From Parcubacteria group bacterium (GTDB lineage Bacteria; Patescibacteriota; Minisyncoccia; Moranbacterales; UBA11712): a stretch of 64,000 bases of DNA. Positions 2,943-57,749 of this stretch are shown here, piece after piece (the stretch's first letter is position 1; each line of letters opens with the position of its first letter). Both the position numbers and the translations under genes were made by a program. The notes below the pieces were generated by a model that was not told where the DNA came from, made no database searches, and saw nothing but the letters and a program-made list of their open reading frames with translations. The stretch lies in contig JBAZXV010000007.1 in assembly GCA_041659685.1 (NCBI GenBank), forward strand, positions 6,348 to 70,347, given 5' to 3'.

Positions 2943-3899
2943 TTATATCCTGTGCTCCAGGATCTTTCTGATAAAATGATCTTTCAATTCTTCGCCAGTT
3001 CCCGCGCACAATTGAATTGTGCCTTTTTGGAGCTTGTGCGTCAATTTTCTCGTTAGCATTTTAAAATATATGAACAATTCTATCATTTTGAACTCCCTAT
3101 GCAACTTTTCCGAATCCCCGCTGTATTTTTCCAAATAGGATTTTATCAGATTGTTATGCCACTCAGTCACGCCATATTGATCCGTGAGGGTGCTGACGTG
3201 GGCGAACTCAAATGCGATGGGGGCGATCAGGGATCTGTCCCAGTCGATCAGCGCCTTAATTTTGTTTTCAGAAACAAGGACATTTTTGAAATTTACGTCT
3301 CCGTGCAGAAAACAATGCGGAGAATAATTCTTGAAATATTCATATATTTCCGGCAAGTCGTTGAAGCGCTCTTCCAGTTTTTCAAAAATATTATCAGACT
3401 CCAAAGTACTCTTTATTCTTTTGTGGTATGCAGAGAAGTATTCATAAAGGTCTCTTTTTCCGTTCGGAAACATATCGGAAAAATTTTTCTGTTTGAGGCT
3501 GTGAAGATTGATTAAAAAACCGGAGAGTTCGTTCAGGTTAAATTCACTGCCCGCTACCGCATTGAATTCCTCGGGTTCCAAGATTTCTCCTTCAATGAAT
3601 TCCAAAAAAGTTACATAACCCGGAAAACCGGGGCAAGAATTCAGGCATTTCACGAGTTTCGGGGATTTATCCGGCCCAAGAATATCATTTGCCGTTCTAA
3701 TGGCGGTTTTTTCTTTGAGTCCCTTCCCTCTCTTGAGATCCCATTCGTCAAATCCGATCTTTGCCACAAGTTTTCTGCCGCTTTTAAAATTTATTTTATA
3801 AGCGACGGTCGTTAAAGCGAGCGGAAAAACCGAAAGCTTTTCCAGAATTTCATCCGGGAATTCTTTTTTGATTAGTTTTTTTAACTCGGCTTGGAACAT
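2943..3899 (-). CDS. phosphotransferase-family kinase (aminoglycoside/choline-kinase-like APH fold)
   Basis: Catalytic HGDVNFKNVLV and DWDRS motifs typical of APH/ChoK-like kinases. Confidence 0.7.
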   Translation of the reverse strand: MFQAELKKLIKKEFPDEILEKLSVFPLALTTVAYKINFKSGRKLVAKIGFDEWDLKRGKGLKEKTAIRTANDILGPDKSPKLVKCLNSCPGFPGYVTFLEFIEGEILEPEEFNAVAGSEFNLNELSGFLINLHSLKQKNFSDMFPNGKRDLYEYFSAYHKRIKSTLESDNIFEKLEERFNDLPEIYEYFKNYSPHCFLHGDVNFKNVLVSENKIKALIDWDRSLIAPIAFEFAHVSTLTDQYGVTEWHNNLIKSYLEKYSGDSEKLHREFKMIELFIYFKMLTRKLTHKLQKGTIQLCAGTGEELKDHFIRKILEHRI

Positions 3900-4193
3900 A
3901 ATGAATTATAAATTTATCCAGTTTGTCGTTTCATGTTGACGGTTTCGGGTTTTTTTAACTCAACACCGAAAATATCTGCGAAGAAAATTGTATTAGCGCT
4001 CTAAATCGATCTTTGATTATATATCGATTCTGGAAATAATTTTCCCGAACTATTAATATAATTAAGCAGATTTATATATTTTTAGCCAGTTAATCAGATT
4101 CCGGAATTAAATTTTTCCGGTAAGGATTATTTTTTTGAAAGGGCGGACCATTGATCCGCCCTGACTATTATCTCTCTCGTACTCAATTCCGAT

Positions 4194-47173: not shown

Positions 47174-47416
47174 ATGAATTACGTTTACATTTTGAAAAGC
47201 ATGGCAGAAAATTGGGCTTATATCGGATGTTGTGACGATTTAAGAAAAAGATTTTTACAACACAATTGCGGTAAAGTAAGATCGACAAAAGCGCGCCGTC
47301 CATATAAACTGGCTTATTATGAAGCTTACGGTGATTTAAGCTTAGCGCGGAAAAGAGAATTTGAACTGAAAAATAACAATAGCAAGAAGGAAGAACTGTT
47401 TGGAAGAATATTTTGA
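47174..47416 (+). CDS. GIY-YIG nuclease superfamily protein (UPF0213/Slx1-like small endonuclease)
   Basis: YVYILKS...WAYIGCCDDLRKRFLQHNCGK...STKARRPYKLAYYEAY matches the GIY-YIG catalytic module; 80 aa. Confidence 0.75.
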   Translation: MNYVYILKSMAENWAYIGCCDDLRKRFLQHNCGKVRSTKARRPYKLAYYEAYGDLSLARKREFELKNNNSKKEELFGRIF

Positions 47417-47423
47417 GAGACAT

Positions 47424-47495
47424 GGCCCTATCGTCTAGTGGTTAGGACAGCGGGTTTTCAATCCGTTAACCGGGGTTCGATTCCCCGTAGGGCTA
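47424..47495 (+). tRNA. tRNA-Glu (anticodon TTC)
   Basis: Acceptor GGCCCTA/TAGGGCT, D-arm GTCTAGTGGTTAGGAC, anticodon loop TTTTCAA, T-arm CGGGGTTCGATTCCCCG. Confidence 0.85.
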
Positions 47496-47505
47496 CGCAC
47501 AAAAA

Positions 47506-47570: not shown

Positions 47571-47619
47571 ATGCGTAGGTATGCATAGGTTTGCATAGGT
47601 TGTAATACTGTGCTATACT
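47571..47619 (+). promoter_or_regulatory. three tandem 10-bp repeats (ATGCRTAGGT) overlapping a TTGCAT-17-TATACT promoter
   Basis: atgcgtaggt atgcataggt ttgcataggt at 47571-47600; -10 TATACT at 47614-47619. Confidence 0.5.
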
Positions 47620-47642
47620 GGAAACAGCTAAATAATGATTTT

Positions 47643-48386
47643 ATGGAACAAAAACCATTAATTTCAATCGGAGAGGCTGCCAAAAAAATGCATATTTCGA
47701 TAGATACCTTAAGGCGTTGGGACAATGAAGGACGTTTTCCGGCTGTCCGGTTAAGCGGAAAACGCTTCTATAGAGCGAGTGACATTGAAAAATATTTGGC
47801 AAAATTAACCATAGCAGAGGTGGATATTTTTGAAGCAGCGAAAAAATGGGCTTCGAACAACTCGGCGACCGAGCCCGATCAGTTGTTTTATTGTAAAGAT
47901 AGTTCAGTTTTTCAATATCGGCTGCACAAATTAGAAAATGCTCTCAGCGGTATCGCTAAAATAAGAGATTCATTTCCCTTGCTTACATCTATAACCGGTG
48001 AAATAGGCAACAATTCTTTCGATCACAATATTGGACAATGGCCGGACATACCTGGAATATTTTTCGGTTATGACATAGAGAGAAGAGAGATTGTATTAGC
48101 TGACAGAGGACAGGGAATTCTAGCTACTTTAAAAAGAGTAAAAAAAGAGTTGTCGTCGGATGCAGAAGCTTTGCGAGTCGCGTTTACGGAAATAATTTCT
48201 GGACGTTCCCCTGAAGCAAGAGGCAATGGATTGAAGTATGTGAAGGAAGTTGTCATGGAAAACGATATTTACCTTTTTTTTCAAACTGGCAATGCTGGGT
48301 TAGAATTAGAGAAAGGCGATCAAGCTCTTAATATTATAAAAGTAGACAACCACATTCGTGGTTGCATAGCTTTAATAAAATTTTAA
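47643..48386 (+). CDS. MerR/excisionase-type HTH fused to GHKL (anti-sigma-kinase RsbW/SpoIIAB-like) ATPase; the ORF track begins at 47610 but the promoter -10 box (47614-19) sits inside that extension
   Basis: HTH ISIGEAAKKMHISIDTLRRWDNEGRFPAV; GHKL N-box GEIGNNSFDHN, G1 ADRGQGI, G2 ARGNGLKYV. Confidence 0.65.
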   Translation: MEQKPLISIGEAAKKMHISIDTLRRWDNEGRFPAVRLSGKRFYRASDIEKYLAKLTIAEVDIFEAAKKWASNNSATEPDQLFYCKDSSVFQYRLHKLENALSGIAKIRDSFPLLTSITGEIGNNSFDHNIGQWPDIPGIFFGYDIERREIVLADRGQGILATLKRVKKELSSDAEALRVAFTEIISGRSPEARGNGLKYVKEVVMENDIYLFFQTGNAGLELEKGDQALNIIKVDNHIRGCIALIKF

Positions 48387-54954: not shown

Positions 54955-55026
54955 TCTGAGATTGTGTCCCCGCGAGGAATCGAACCTCGATTTCAGGCTC
55001 CGCAAGCCTACGCTCTATCCGTTGAG
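54955..55026 (-). tRNA. tRNA-Arg (anticodon GCG, provisional)
   Basis: Minus-strand GTCCCCGTAGCTCAACGGATAGAGCGTAGGCTTGCGGAGCCTG...CGAGGTTCGATTCCTCGCGGGGACA; loop TTGCGGA with G37. Confidence 0.65.
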
Positions 55027-55099
55027 CTACGGGGACGTATATTCTTTGCCTGTATGCCAAAAATCTTAAAGCCTGTGGAAAATACAAGACAGACTATAA

Positions 55100-55669
55100 T
55101 CACAATCCGATTATTCTCTCAAGTCTGTCGATTATTGTCAATTCCTGCCTGATTTCGGGCAAGTATTGAACGAGGACTTCCCGAATTAAAATCGGATTGG
55201 CGGTTCCAATCGGTACGTGAATATGAGGAAGGAAATTTTTTTTACTGTGAAGGCTCAGAATCTTTATATTTTCTTCTGTCTCATAAAATATCCAGAAACT
55301 CTTGAGATCTTCAAACCGGTAAAAATAATTGTCGACCCGCACTCCGTCAGGGCTTATATCCATTTGAATATTCCGCGGTTCCCGTTCGGCGTAAACGTAG
55401 CCCAGGGTGCCGATTAGTATGAAAGTTATGGCCATTAGAATACTGTTTGTCACCAGCGCATAAACGATCACGGCGAGGAGTATTCCGCCCATTGTGAGAT
55501 ACCAGCGGGGATGCTTTTCTTCATGGTCGTATTCAGGCGCTTCCCAGGAAAACGACGGTTCGTCTTCTTCGATATTTTGAATATCCGCTTCCTGATTTTT
55601 TCCTGGATGCGAAGACTGGGCATAAGGCCTTCTGACGGCTTGGCGATTTTTATTTTTTGAAACTTCCAT
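55100..55669 (-). CDS. hypothetical membrane protein (2 TM, charged N-terminus)
   Basis: 189 aa; no recognisable catalytic motif. Confidence 0.4.
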   Translation of the reverse strand: MEVSKNKNRQAVRRPYAQSSHPGKNQEADIQNIEEDEPSFSWEAPEYDHEEKHPRWYLTMGGILLAVIVYALVTNSILMAITFILIGTLGYVYAEREPRNIQMDISPDGVRVDNYFYRFEDLKSFWIFYETEENIKILSLHSKKNFLPHIHVPIGTANPILIREVLVQYLPEIRQELTIIDRLERIIGL

Positions 55670-55705
55670 TGATATTGATATTCGGATTATTTATTTTTTC
55701 GTAAT

Positions 55706-55795
55706 TGGCGGAGGAGGAGGGATTTGAACCCCCGGTACCTTTTCAGGTACTCCGGTTTTCAAGACCGGTCCATTCAGCCGCTCTGGCACTCCTCC
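55706..55795 (-). tRNA. tRNA-Ser (anticodon TGA), CCA encoded
   Basis: Minus-strand GGAGGAGTGCCAGAGCGGCTGAATGG...CTTGAAA loop, long variable arm, T-arm GGGGGTTCAAATCCCTC, 3' GCCA. Confidence 0.85.
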
Positions 55796-55814
55796 ATGAG
55801 GGAATATACTCATT

Positions 55815-55905
55815 CGGAAGGGGAGGGATTCGAACCCTCGATACGGTTTTAACGCCGTATAACAGGTTAGCAACCTATCGCTTTCAGCCTCTCAGCCACC
55901 CTTCC
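55815..55905 (-). tRNA. tRNA-Ser (anticodon GCT)
   Basis: Minus-strand GGAAGGGTGGCTGAGAGGCTGAAAGC...TTGCTAA loop, long variable arm, T-arm GAGGGTTCGAATCCCTC, discriminator G. Confidence 0.85.
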
Positions 55906-55911
55906 AGATAT

Positions 55912-56922
55912 TTATTTTAAAAATAGCTTTTTTAGGTGTTTTTTGTTGCTTGATCCCACGATTTCGAAATATTTCCGGACATTTCGCGTGTTTTCAATCT
56001 TTATTTCCTTATTCCTATGTATTCTAGGCTTTAATCCAATATTTTTCAAGATCCCGAAAACCGTAAGGAGAAGCGGCGGGGATAAACTGCAGAAAGATAA
56101 TTTATGATAACAGTAAAACTTATTATTAATGATGTATTTATGTTTGTAGACAGACCCGTCAGTGTCAACAAGCCCTCGCAAGCAGGCTATCTCATATTTC
56201 TTGTTTTGTCTTATCCATCTTGGAATATCGATTTTTTGTTTAATCTTATTGCCGATTTTTAATCCTATTTTTTGCGTGAGAAAAGCCACTAGTTCCGTGC
56301 GAGATATCACAATTGTATCCGCTTTGCTTTTAGGATCCGAATATAAACCAGGAGAAACGCCGAACAAGTCCGTGATCGTTTTTTTTACAAACCGAATATA
56401 GTCTCGATCAGTTTCACGGTTCAATGAAATTGAAACTTGTCTCTTGCTTATGCCTCCGTCTCCCAGGACTATGCCGACAAATTCCGCTAGCTTAGTGGAA
56501 AATGACGGTTTCTTTATTGAGAGTCGCTTATTGATGATGGGATGTTTCTTAAATCTCCCTTCCTTTTCCCACCATTCCCGCCATTTTTTTATTCTTGTTT
56601 TAGGATTGCCGCCAATAATCTTATATTTTTTCAGTACGGCGAGTCCGCCTTTTCGAGCGCCCTTATTGGCGTACCAATAGGGTGAAAGTAATTTAACATT
56701 TTCGGGAATATTGAGAGTCGCTTTTTTTCGGATGATTTTTGCGGCGCTTAAAGGCAAAGTAATTTTTTCCCGTTTCCAGTCTGAAAGAGTTCTTTCGCTT
56801 ATCTTCAATAGTTTGGCGAATTCACGCCAATCCATACCAAGCTTGTTTTTTGCGGCAAAAAGAAAATCCCTCTGCTTTTCCTTTGGGAATTTGACTCTTT
56901 TGGATTTATACCTCTCAGCCAT
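55912..56922 (-). CDS. LAGLIDADG-family homing-endonuclease-like protein (two motifs) with N-terminal HTH-like region
   Basis: LAEFVGIVLGDGGIS and LRGLVDTDGSVYK are the two LAGLIDADG catalytic motifs; 336 aa; stop 7 nt from tRNA-Ser. Confidence 0.75.
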   Translation of the reverse strand: MAERYKSKRVKFPKEKQRDFLFAAKNKLGMDWREFAKLLKISERTLSDWKREKITLPLSAAKIIRKKATLNIPENVKLLSPYWYANKGARKGGLAVLKKYKIIGGNPKTRIKKWREWWEKEGRFKKHPIINKRLSIKKPSFSTKLAEFVGIVLGDGGISKRQVSISLNRETDRDYIRFVKKTITDLFGVSPGLYSDPKSKADTIVISRTELVAFLTQKIGLKIGNKIKQKIDIPRWIRQNKKYEIACLRGLVDTDGSVYKHKYIINNKFYCYHKLSFCSLSPPLLLTVFGILKNIGLKPRIHRNKEIKIENTRNVRKYFEIVGSSNKKHLKKLFLK

Positions 56923-56960
56923 GCTTCCATAATGATCTATCTCGTATCTCCGGTCAATGT

Positions 56961-57749
56961 TTATTTTTTAAACGTTTGCCGCGAGATTACCGCTGCGGAG
57001 ACCTTTTTCGCCCCGTTTTGTTTGAGAATCTTGGCGCATTCCTGCAAAGTGGCTCCGGTGGTGGCAATATCATCGACAAGAAGCACTGACTTTTTTTTCA
57101 AGATATTTTCTCCGAAATCAGTTTTAATCGAAAATATCCCTTTGACATTTCTTAGTCTTTCCTGAAAACGGCTTATTTTCATTTGAGCTTTGCTGTTCCT
57201 ATCCCTTTGCAATATTTCAATAACTTTAATTTCCATGGAAGGGGCAAGATTCAGTGATATTTTTTTTGCCAAAAGGAAACTTTGGTTGAATCCCCGCCAT
57301 CGCAATCGTCTCGGATGCAGAGGAACCGGGACTATGAAATCAGGAAGTAAAATGTCGTTTTTTATCAATGCTCTTGTCATAATATCAGAAAGGGGAACCG
57401 AGGAATCAGCCACGAACCGATACTTTAAATTATGAACCAGTCTTCGAATAATTTCACTGTCATATGAAGCGGCGGCTATCAATGAGTCCAGGTATGATCC
57501 CTTTAATTTTTTGCACCGGGGGCATAAAGCGCCCTTTTCAGAAATAAACTTTTCACAATCCGGACAAAGCTGGTAATCAAGCGGATTTATCGCAGGCAAG
57601 CATTCAGGGCAAAGCCAAAATTTCTCTTTTCCGCATCTTAGGCAAGTTATGGGAAAAAGAGTGTCAAGAATGTTCTTTCTTATTAATTTTGAATAGTTTG
57701 GCATAAAAATAGAAAATTTTTTGCGAAAAGGCCTGAGTTGATTATACAT
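56961..57749 (-). CDS. comF: ComF family protein (competence; zinc-ribbon plus phosphoribosyltransferase domain)
   Basis: Double CxxC zinc ribbons (CLRCG..CPEC, CPDC..CPRC) and PRTase motif VLLVDDIATTGATL. Confidence 0.75.
   Translation of the reverse strand: MYNQLRPFRKKFSIFMPNYSKLIRKNILDTLFPITCLRCGKEKFWLCPECLPAINPLDYQLCPDCEKFISEKGALCPRCKKLKGSYLDSLIAAASYDSEIIRRLVHNLKYRFVADSSVPLSDIMTRALIKNDILLPDFIVPVPLHPRRLRWRGFNQSFLLAKKISLNLAPSMEIKVIEILQRDRNSKAQMKISRFQERLRNVKGIFSIKTDFGENILKKKSVLLVDDIATTGATLQECAKILKQNGAKKVSAAVISRQTFKK

Follow-up and report, generated by a model that had tools for sequence, protein, structure and literature searches.

We analysed a free-standing gene for an endonuclease of the LAGLIDADG type, which lies directly in front of two serine tRNA genes in a DNA stretch of 64,000 nucleotides (nt) from a Parcubacteria group bacterium (contig JBAZXV010000007.1; this whole stretch is called the window). 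The open reading frame (ORF) occupies positions 55912..56922 on the minus strand, starts with ATG and encodes 336 amino acids (aa); it was assigned by Pfam, by its homologs and by AlphaFold/Foldseek as a helix-turn-helix (HTH)-LAGLIDADG endonuclease gene. It is followed on the same strand by tRNA-Ser(GCU), the gene on which it is docked (55814..55905, minus; 55814..55906 by ARAGORN and 55815..55905 by Rfam), and, after an 18-nt spacer, by tRNA-Ser(UGA) (55706..55795, minus; ARAGORN, Rfam), which lies outside the module that appears to be exchanged and forms its right-hand boundary. The stop codon TAA (55914-55912) is separated by 6 nt (atatct) from the first G of the acceptor stem of tRNA-Ser(GCU), and the tRNA start given by ARAGORN would make this gap 5 nt. 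A preliminary description of this DNA had rightly placed the ORF directly before the tRNA, with tRNA-Ser(TGA) downstream on the same strand, but its gap of 7 nt should read 6. Both tRNA-Ser genes are continuous and uninterrupted (ARAGORN, Rfam). Rfam detected no intron RNA on either strand of 55400-57300, even at E<=1, and Pfam detected no Hint/intein domain in the ORF, so the gene is indeed free-standing as had been described.

The ORF was matched by Pfam LAGLIDADG_3 in two stretches, with E=9e-10 and 39.1 bits against a cut-off of 22.5. Motif 1, LAEFVGIVLGDGGIS (residues 145-159; 56446..56490, minus), contains Asp155 (codon 56458-56460), and motif 2, LRGLVDTDGSV (residues 248-258; 56149..56181, minus), contains Asp255 (codon 56158-56160). 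An AlphaFold model built on 30 homologs had a predicted local distance difference test score (pLDDT) of 87, and residues 140-336 formed a two-domain LAGLIDADG fold. Foldseek against the PDB gave 109 matches at E<=1e-3, of which the top 50 were all LAGLIDADG-fold proteins. The closest were I-Tsp061I (E=5.6e-11), the TliVMA intein endonuclease and I-DmoI; bI3 maturase, I-AniI and WhiA (rank 11) were lower-ranked matches. Both motifs noticed in the preliminary description are thus supported by Pfam and by the fold search. A fortuitous match of the motifs was ruled out by the same two results and by 896 homologs.

The N-terminal part, which had been described as HTH-like, is an Xre/Cro-type HTH (residues 15-70; 56713..56880, minus) according to sub-cut-off Pfam matches and Foldseek. 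HTH_23, HTH_3 and HTH_28 matched residues 23-63, all below their own cut-offs. The AlphaFold model has pLDDT >90 in residues 15-70. When modelled separately, these residues superposed on C.Esp1396I, SinR, P22 c2 and DdrO with a root-mean-square deviation of about 2 A over about 57 residues, at weak Foldseek E-values of 0.03-0.2. A Trp-rich helical linker (residues 77-131; 56530..56694, minus), defined by an alignment of 30 sequences and residue counts over 81, connects the two parts, and the confidence of the model is lower there (pLDDT 60-75). The model indicates that the protein is a monomeric two-motif LAGLIDADG nuclease with an added N-terminal Xre-type HTH. Its nearest sequence matches in NCBIfam and PDB are intein endonuclease inserts, NF038162 (residues 144-329) and 7qsu (residues 126-238), which cover the nuclease portion only. 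Judging from these alignments the protein is not intein-borne, because only the nuclease portion aligns to inteins and the ORF opens at its own promoter with an HTH. No WhiA_N, LAGLIDADG_WhiA or HTH_WhiA match was found in the ORF by Pfam.

The exact protein of the window is already in NCBI as "LAGLIDADG family homing endonuclease" from a metagenome-assembled genome (MAG) of the Parcubacteria group. There were 896 word-indexed homologs, and among the 120 listed nearly all were about 335 aa long, with identities of at least 50%. When 1.8 billion cluster representatives (clusters at 50% identity) were searched with a profile, 610 clusters matched at E<=1e-30. The informative taxon labels were all of Parcubacteria type (Moran-, Yonath-, Harrison-, Jorgensen-, Sung-, Staskawicz-, Nealson-, Uhr-, Yanofsky- and Nomurabacteria). 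The NCBI taxon labels of these MAGs were too unreliable to be set against a neighbour-joining tree. A scan of one genome per GTDB species found relatives in at least 384 species. The best 80 loci (numbered L001 onwards) were kept, and family counts of 81 refer to these 80 and the window copy.

All 81 copies were intact, in a single frame and 322-389 aa long. D155 and D255, the catalytic acidic residues, are kept in the window and in 81/81 of the family, and so are E147, Q162, K226, N326, W49, W117 and W118, together with G154, G156, D253, T254 and G256 around the motifs. W83, Y84 and W114 were nearly invariant in the 81 sequences. About 50 residues were invariant in the alignment of 30 sequences, including D155 (in GDGG) and D255 (in DTDG). 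The ratio of the proportions of nonsynonymous and synonymous differences (pN/pS) in unsaturated pairs was 0.19 (window-L001), 0.20 (L035-L040) and 0.11 (L026-L027), and such values of 0.1-0.2 point to purifying selection on the ORF protein.

The family was not found in IMG/VR or GenBank phages, where only matches of 24-30% to the nuclease domain appeared, and PHROGs gave weak HTH matches only. A search with the N-terminal domain only returned two fragments, without any new architecture. In viral contigs, a broader T-arm pattern matched tRNA-Ser of all anticodons and revealed no ORF. No tRNA-Ser-linked family of this kind was found in the literature searched. One distant member, P0265, is on a 1.1-kb contig, too short to show a tRNA. 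Two ORF copies in one genome (L042 and L078, same MAG) were considered and rejected, as the coverages of the contigs differ and mis-binning is possible.

The linkage with tRNA-Ser, for which a comparison of the locus among relatives had been proposed, is matched in all informative loci. Informative for this were 78 loci (77 from GTDB and the window), since the other three GTDB contigs stop right behind the ORF. A tRNA-Ser stood immediately 3' of the ORF on the same strand in 78/78, at protein identities of 42-100%; the anticodon was gct in 73, tga in 4 and cga in 1. Because this holds in all 78 loci, the pairing of ORF and tRNA-Ser is not chance. The genes upstream of the ORF were of about 30 kinds, including ComF (15), an IF-2-side gene (11), tRNA-Arg(GCG) (11) and tRNA-Ser(UGA) (8). 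The unit of ORF and tRNA-Ser is also found inverted as a block between unchanged flanking genes, and L065, L068 and L072 have GCU-ORF-UGA in place of ORF-GCU-UGA, with two different flank backgrounds. The gap from stop codon to tRNA ranged from -136 to +35 nt (median 17 nt), and in 10 loci the ORF stopped within or past the tRNA. The stop is inside tRNA-Ser in L036, L051, L057, L065, L068 and L072, and in L078 it is 136 nt past the tRNA start. In such loci, the mRNA would lose its stop codon when the tRNA is cut out of a read-through transcript, and this could be a built-in limiter of nuclease expression.

The ORF of the window has a sigma70-type promoter, TTGACC-17-CATTAT (56929..56957, minus; promoter scan), whose -10 ends 6 nt before the ATG. 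A -10 hexamer exactly 6 nt before the ATG was present in 66/81 family loci but in only 9.8% of the 625 other genes of these loci, and a good -35 was usually found 17 nt further upstream. From this geometry a leaderless mRNA is predicted. In a sub-clade (L025, L028, L030, L039, L042, L046, L074, L075) the ancestral ATG, 20-40 nt upstream of the annotated start, has become ATA and its frame is closed after 8 codons. These copies restart at an ATG 23-29 nt downstream and have lost the first 7-8 residues; they keep the promoter, and a short leader is expected in them instead of a leaderless mRNA.

The 3' end of the ORF seems to carry a second signal. The conserved C-terminal N-x-K-H-L codons (residues 326-330; 55933..55947, minus) hold an embedded -35 in most relatives, where the His-Leu-Lys codons (cac TTG AAa) of N-P-K-H-L-K double as the -35 of the tRNA-Ser promoter. 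The codon of Leu330 was TTG in 52 of the 64 loci that encode Leu there (81%), against 22% TTG over all Leu codons of these ORFs. A TAnnnT box lies 16-18 nt after the embedded -35, so that promoters of the form TTGAAA-17-TAnnnT are seen, and in most loci the His codon is 40-47 nt away from the beginning of the tRNA. The conserved TTG and the spaced TAnnnT box suggest that in most lineages the tRNA-Ser promoter is embedded in the ORF end. In the window the Leu330 codon is CTA and this -35 is missing; the nearest relatives likewise lack that TTG and, like the window, have no more than a weak candidate promoter. A weak and tentative tRNA promoter in the window, AAAACA-17-TAAAAT (55914..55942, minus), came from our own scan and is below the threshold of the tool scan; its -10 overlaps the ORF stop, 7 nt before the tRNA. 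The tool scan found instead TTGAAA-18-AATATT at 55997..55968, within the ORF. No terminator was predicted between the ORF and the tRNAs of the window, and read-through from ORF to tRNA is possible. The co-transcription that the preliminary description took to be apparent may occur but is not required, as the ORF has a promoter of its own and so, in most relatives, does the tRNA.

Comparison of the window with L001 indicated a separate history of the ORF and tRNA-Ser(GCU). Nucleotide identity was 82% for the ORF and 97% for tRNA-Ser(gct), against 56% for ComF, 64-67% for tRNA-Ser(tga) 61% for F5, a neighbour encoding a 189-aa membrane protein, and 55% for tRNA-Arg. The pS of the ORF was 0.51 (bootstrap 95% confidence interval 0.43-0.59) and decreased by quarters toward the tRNA (0.65, 0.56, 0.49, 0.33), against six saturated neighbour genes with pS of 0.82-0.86 (pooled 0.83, 0.80-0.87). 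The window ORF had pS of 0.65-0.73 against L002 and L003, so synonymous changes are not scarce in the ORF as such; on these figures, constraint at the protein level cannot explain the pattern between the window and L001. Low ORF pS was also found in L035-L040 (0.23 vs 0.56 for neighbours) and L060-L069 (0.52 vs 0.77). The pair L002-L003 showed the reverse: the flanks were 85-92% identical (PilM protein 93%), the ORF 3' end and tRNA-Ser(gct) only 50-60%, and identity jumped to 99% at tRNA-Ser(tga). L070-L071 was a milder case of this direction. In L037-L052 the ORF pS was 0.14 against 0.02 and 0.07 for two upstream neighbours, a value not above the pooled neighbours. Over the loci, divergence was rank-correlated between neighbours with a median rho of about 0.68, and between ORF and neighbours with about 0.39.

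The low-pS island or identity trough covering the ORF and tRNA-Ser(gct), the gradient toward the tRNA and the sharp edge before tRNA-Ser(tga) together make up the pattern to be expected of gene conversion with co-conversion of flanking markers. The simplest account of these sequence patterns would be repeated gene conversion or transfer of ORF and tRNA-Ser(GCU), with conversion tracts that would start near the ORF/tRNA junction and resolve rightward in the conserved tRNA body. tRNA-Ser(GCU) is then probably both a homology arm and a co-converted marker. The preliminary description had also considered the ORF as a footprint left by an element, which does not agree with an ORF that is intact, evolves under purifying selection and seems still to be exchanged from lineage to lineage.

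The tRNA genes of the close relatives (window, L001-L003, L273-L277) were unusually divergent and mosaic, and adjacent tRNAs differed in history. tRNA-Arg(gcg) of the window (54964-55036) was 93% identical to that of L002/L003 and 77% to that of L001. For tRNA-Ser(tga) of the window the value with L002/L003 was 89%, against the 64-67% with L001.

In a first view, synteny with L001-L003 was kept on both sides of the locus and the ORF was among the best-conserved proteins there. Relatives without the ORF (L273, L274, L277) were reached through homologs of F5, independently of the ORF. They have the order PilM/ComF, tRNA-Ser(gct), then tRNA-Ser(tga)-F5-tRNA-Arg-RecG, and no trace of the ORF was found in their 8-kb excerpts. 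Their identity to the window was 52-56% for ComF, 66-71% for PilM and 64-74% for F5, which is the same distance as that of the ORF-bearing L001-L003. In L277 the ComF stop is 30 nt from tRNA-Ser(gct), which is a clean empty site. For F5, the ORF-less L273 was 84% identical to the ORF-bearing L001, against 74% between the window and L001. Since L273 is nearer to L001 than the window is, presence and absence of the ORF are interspersed among close relatives. A strictly vertical housekeeping gene, which conservation like that of RecG and IF-2 had suggested, was dropped on the ORF-less relatives and the synonymous-site analysis.

When metagenome contigs were scanned for a tRNA-Ser(GCU) pattern, 120 loci came up, mostly from high-GC bacteria outside the Candidate Phyla Radiation (CPR); they provide no occupancy rate. 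The only CPR-like loci among them were L150, L158, L169 and L188, all with tRNA-Ser(GCU) and none with the ORF upstream. In L188 an FAD oxidase gene without counterpart in ORF-bearing loci is upstream of the tRNA, so the junction has no comparison there. Clean empty sites at tRNA-Ser were seen in L277, L273, L274 and L169, and the 5' halves of the tRNAs did not differ between alleles with and without the ORF.

The locus between ComF and F5 is a variable hotspot. Around the two tRNA-Ser genes of the ORF-less L273, L274, L275/L276 and L277, we identified a GDSL lipase, ART-PolyVal, a tyrosine phosphatase, a PaaX_M/Cas2-like protein and a 190-aa protein as cargo, and in L275/L276 a serine recombinase and a Rep protein.

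From the comparative evidence we consider it probable, with considerable room for doubt, that the ORF encodes an active free-standing homing endonuclease targeting the 5' edge of tRNA-Ser. The ORF and tRNA-Ser appear to have spread together between related genomes. Among the explanations offered in the preliminary description, an element that targeted the tRNA fits best. We infer site-specific DNA endonuclease activity of the protein from the modelled fold and the invariant catalytic residues. LAGLIDADG enzymes cleave DNA targets of 18-22 bp site-specifically and leave 4-nt 3' overhangs. The enzyme would cut alleles without the ORF at the 5' edge of tRNA-Ser or close to it; the target site would probably consist of the tRNA leader or promoter and the first part of the tRNA gene. 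Alleles already occupied would be immune, because insertion of the ORF would split the site. The break would be repaired from an ORF-bearing copy, with the tRNA body as right arm and the upstream gene or another tRNA as left arm, and in this way the ORF and the adjacent tRNA-Ser allele would be copied together ("intronless homing" with co-conversion). The cassette would be harmless to the host, as it would bring its own promoter for a leaderless mRNA and, in most lineages, a replacement tRNA promoter. The HTH may either extend DNA recognition or autoregulate the promoter of the cassette. Donor and recipient copies would be supplied by DNA uptake; the competence-type genes ComF and PilM adjoin the ORF in many loci, which is possibly a coincidence. 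As a further step, which we propose only tentatively and which may well fail, the system might be a natural gene drive on an essential chromosomal tRNA gene in cells, in which the nuclease and its tRNA-Ser(GCU) allele would spread jointly in populations of Parcubacteria by break-induced conversion of DNA taken up from relatives.

The closest functional parallel is SegB of phage T4, a free-standing GIY-YIG homing endonuclease in a tRNA cluster. It recognises the T-psi-C motif of tRNAs and causes its own gene and the tRNA genes around it to be inherited preferentially (PMC2330249). In both cases a free-standing nuclease gene lies among tRNA genes, and the island of ORF and tRNA-Ser(GCU) is the footprint expected of such a process. 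SegB, however, is a GIY-YIG enzyme of a phage with demonstrated activity, whereas the ORF encodes a LAGLIDADG protein on a cellular chromosome with predicted activity. The fixed 5' site at one tRNA identity, the Xre HTH and the embedded tRNA promoter set the Parcubacteria family apart from SegB. I-Tsp061I, I-DmoI and TliVMA/PI-PfuI share with the ORF product the two-domain alpha-beta-beta-alpha-beta-beta-alpha fold with an acidic residue ending each LAGLIDADG helix, but they are encoded in rRNA introns or inteins, while the ORF is free-standing with its own promoter. Identity to these archaeal and intein enzymes is 17-21%, and only the ORF product has the 140-residue N-terminal extension of HTH and Trp-rich segment. 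LAGLIDADG genes inside rRNA insertions are known in CPR bacteria (PMC11270868; PMC11809585; PMC8172020); PMC11270868 describes nuclease genes within 16S/23S rRNA, often in group I introns, and does not mention tRNA. These enzymes are of the same radiation and superfamily and follow the same logic of targeting conserved RNA genes, but they lie within genes, whereas the tRNA-Ser family lies outside any gene, beside tRNA-Ser.

Several points weigh against an active homing endonuclease. That the protein cleaves DNA, where its target site lies and that homing or transfer takes place are all inferred from sequence comparison. The mean pairwise identity of the ORF is about 0.5 family-wide, equal to that of RecG and IF-2, and the correlation of its divergence with that of the neighbours is positive, though weak; together they suggest that much of its inheritance is vertical. 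Over all pairs of the whole family, identity of the ORF and identity of the adjacent tRNA were hardly related (rho 0.11). A homing cycle predicts degenerate copies, and there were none among the loci analysed, although only the best 80 of 384 loci were analysed and decayed copies would drop out of such a sample. Of the ORF-less genomes only 8-kb excerpts were seen, and they may have a copy next to a different tRNA-Ser outside these excerpts; MAG assemblies may be chimeric. Moreover, tRNA genes are general hotspots of recombination and integration, and other cargo is found there in ORF-less loci, so part of the mosaicism could have arisen without the nuclease.

The most serious rival is a domesticated host protein, fixed in the ancestor of Parcubacteria as a regulator or nuclease at tRNA-Ser and inherited vertically with occasional loss, whose position beside tRNA-Ser would be due solely to the tRNA promoter within its 3' end. 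We regard it as unlikely, but several observations agree with it: conservation like that of RecG and IF-2, 81/81 intact copies of uniform length, one copy per locus, absence from the phage collections searched, and a unit that holds together through local inversions. The promoter overlap would be a neutral reason for lasting linkage, yet it explains the linkage and not the intactness of the ORF. Relatives that are just as close and share the flanking genes lack the ORF, so it is dispensable, and for this reason the domesticated gene suggested in the preliminary description is not upheld. A purely vertical gene would also not be expected to show islands and troughs of pS coinciding with ORF and tRNA, or to be less coupled to its neighbours than these are to each other. 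WhiA, a Gram-positive transcription factor, provides the precedent for a domesticated LAGLIDADG protein; it too is a free-standing chromosomal bacterial gene combining a LAGLIDADG scaffold with an HTH. However, WhiA has lost the catalytic acidic residues, has a C-terminal HTH and is universal in its clade. The ORF is not WhiA-like, because both catalytic Asp are invariant, its HTH is of another type (Xre) at the opposite end, and the gene is patchy. A neutral passenger or decaying relic, that is, a dead nuclease kept because its deletion would remove the tRNA-Ser promoter, would agree with the -35 in the last ORF codons of most lineages; but such protection would reach only the last ~40 nt, the embedded -35 is missing in the window, and the whole 1-kb ORF is intact in every copy with the invariant residues and low pN/pS given above. 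We give this explanation almost no credence.

Two other explanations take the ORF product as functional in a different way. It might be cargo of a tRNA-associated hotspot with a conditional benefit, for example an anti-phage nuclease, moved by general recombination. The lipase, ART-PolyVal, phosphatase and recombinase/Rep element at the same tRNAs of ORF-less relatives and the small GIY-YIG genes that recur near these tRNAs are consistent with it. Hotspot cargo, however, is normally at variable positions and usually 3' of tRNAs, while the ORF is fixed 5' within a few nt in about 80 lineages; its fold is shared with site-specific homing enzymes, and PADLOC gave no match for it. So we consider cargo of this kind improbable. 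An RNA-directed role, as a maturase-like chaperone or as a factor that processes tRNA-Ser precursors or the co-transcript of its own mRNA and the tRNA, is more doubtful again and in our opinion very improbable. Linkage to tRNA-Ser of three anticodons and the structural likeness to bI3 maturase and I-AniI would suit it, and where the stop is inside the tRNA, as in the 10 loci counted above, tRNA processing and ORF expression interact. But ORF-less relatives carry the same kinds of tRNA-Ser, the Xre HTH reads double-stranded DNA, and maturases without DNA cleavage lose the acidic residues that are invariant here. No intron or structured RNA other than the tRNAs was detected at the locus, and the maturase suggested in the preliminary description therefore found no support. 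A homing endonuclease at the tRNA-Ser edge remains the reading that we prefer.

Other nuclease genes were also found beside tRNAs. The window has an 80-aa GIY-YIG-only protein (47174-47416, plus; Pfam E=9e-12) encoded 7 nt before tRNA-Glu (47424-47496). The preliminary description had called it a tRNA-linked homing-type nuclease; it is real and tRNA-linked, but with a catalytic domain only and without a DNA-binding domain its homing type is unproven. Homologs of it are beside tRNA-Ser in L015, L026, L027, L006, L014, L042, L067 and L080; in three loci they precede tRNA-Ser(tga) by 49-56 nt, and in five they come shortly after a tRNA-Ser. Directly after tRNA-Glu in the window, a 258-aa protein (47610-48386, plus) has an N-terminal MerR-type HTH and an uncharacterised C-terminal domain. 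L188, a CPR-like groundwater contig with no HTH-LAGLIDADG gene at its tRNA-Ser(gct), encodes a 155-aa single-motif LAGLIDADG protein with a C-terminal HTH_68 (3415-3882, plus), whose stop is inside tRNA-His(gtg) (3868-3939). It suggests that tRNA 5' flanks are a general landing site for nuclease genes in these bacteria. Sub-threshold Rfam matches to RF04351 (plastid psbI-rps4 3' untranslated region) at 55815-55870 and 55709-55760 (both plus), antisense to the tRNA-Ser genes, are most likely a model artefact from tRNA-Ser on the opposite strand of the plastid seed region.

On the comparative sequence evidence, these genes represent a large undescribed family of HTH-LAGLIDADG cassettes on tRNA-Ser in Parcubacteria, with signs of ongoing exchange. 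Homing endonucleases are known mainly in introns, inteins, phages and organelles, and a chromosomal free-standing family at one tRNA identity in at least 384 species widens this range and adds tRNA genes to rRNA genes as a second class of conserved-RNA target in the CPR. The tRNA promoter -35 written in conserved codons is a clean example of dual coding, and the HTH-LAGLIDADG architecture is a potential meganuclease scaffold with hundreds of natural variants. It also means that caution is needed in genome annotation and with tRNA-based phylogenetic markers. The discordant pS of the module can serve as a marker for homologous DNA exchange in uncultured Parcubacteria, which is otherwise hard to show. 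If our interpretation is true, the Xre HTH would be a new modular add-on to LAGLIDADG enzymes for target extension or self-repression, a gene drive would account for tRNA alleles being so unusually mosaic in these genomes, and the exchange would be direct evidence for homologous exchange of chromosomal DNA in these ultra-small uncultured bacteria.

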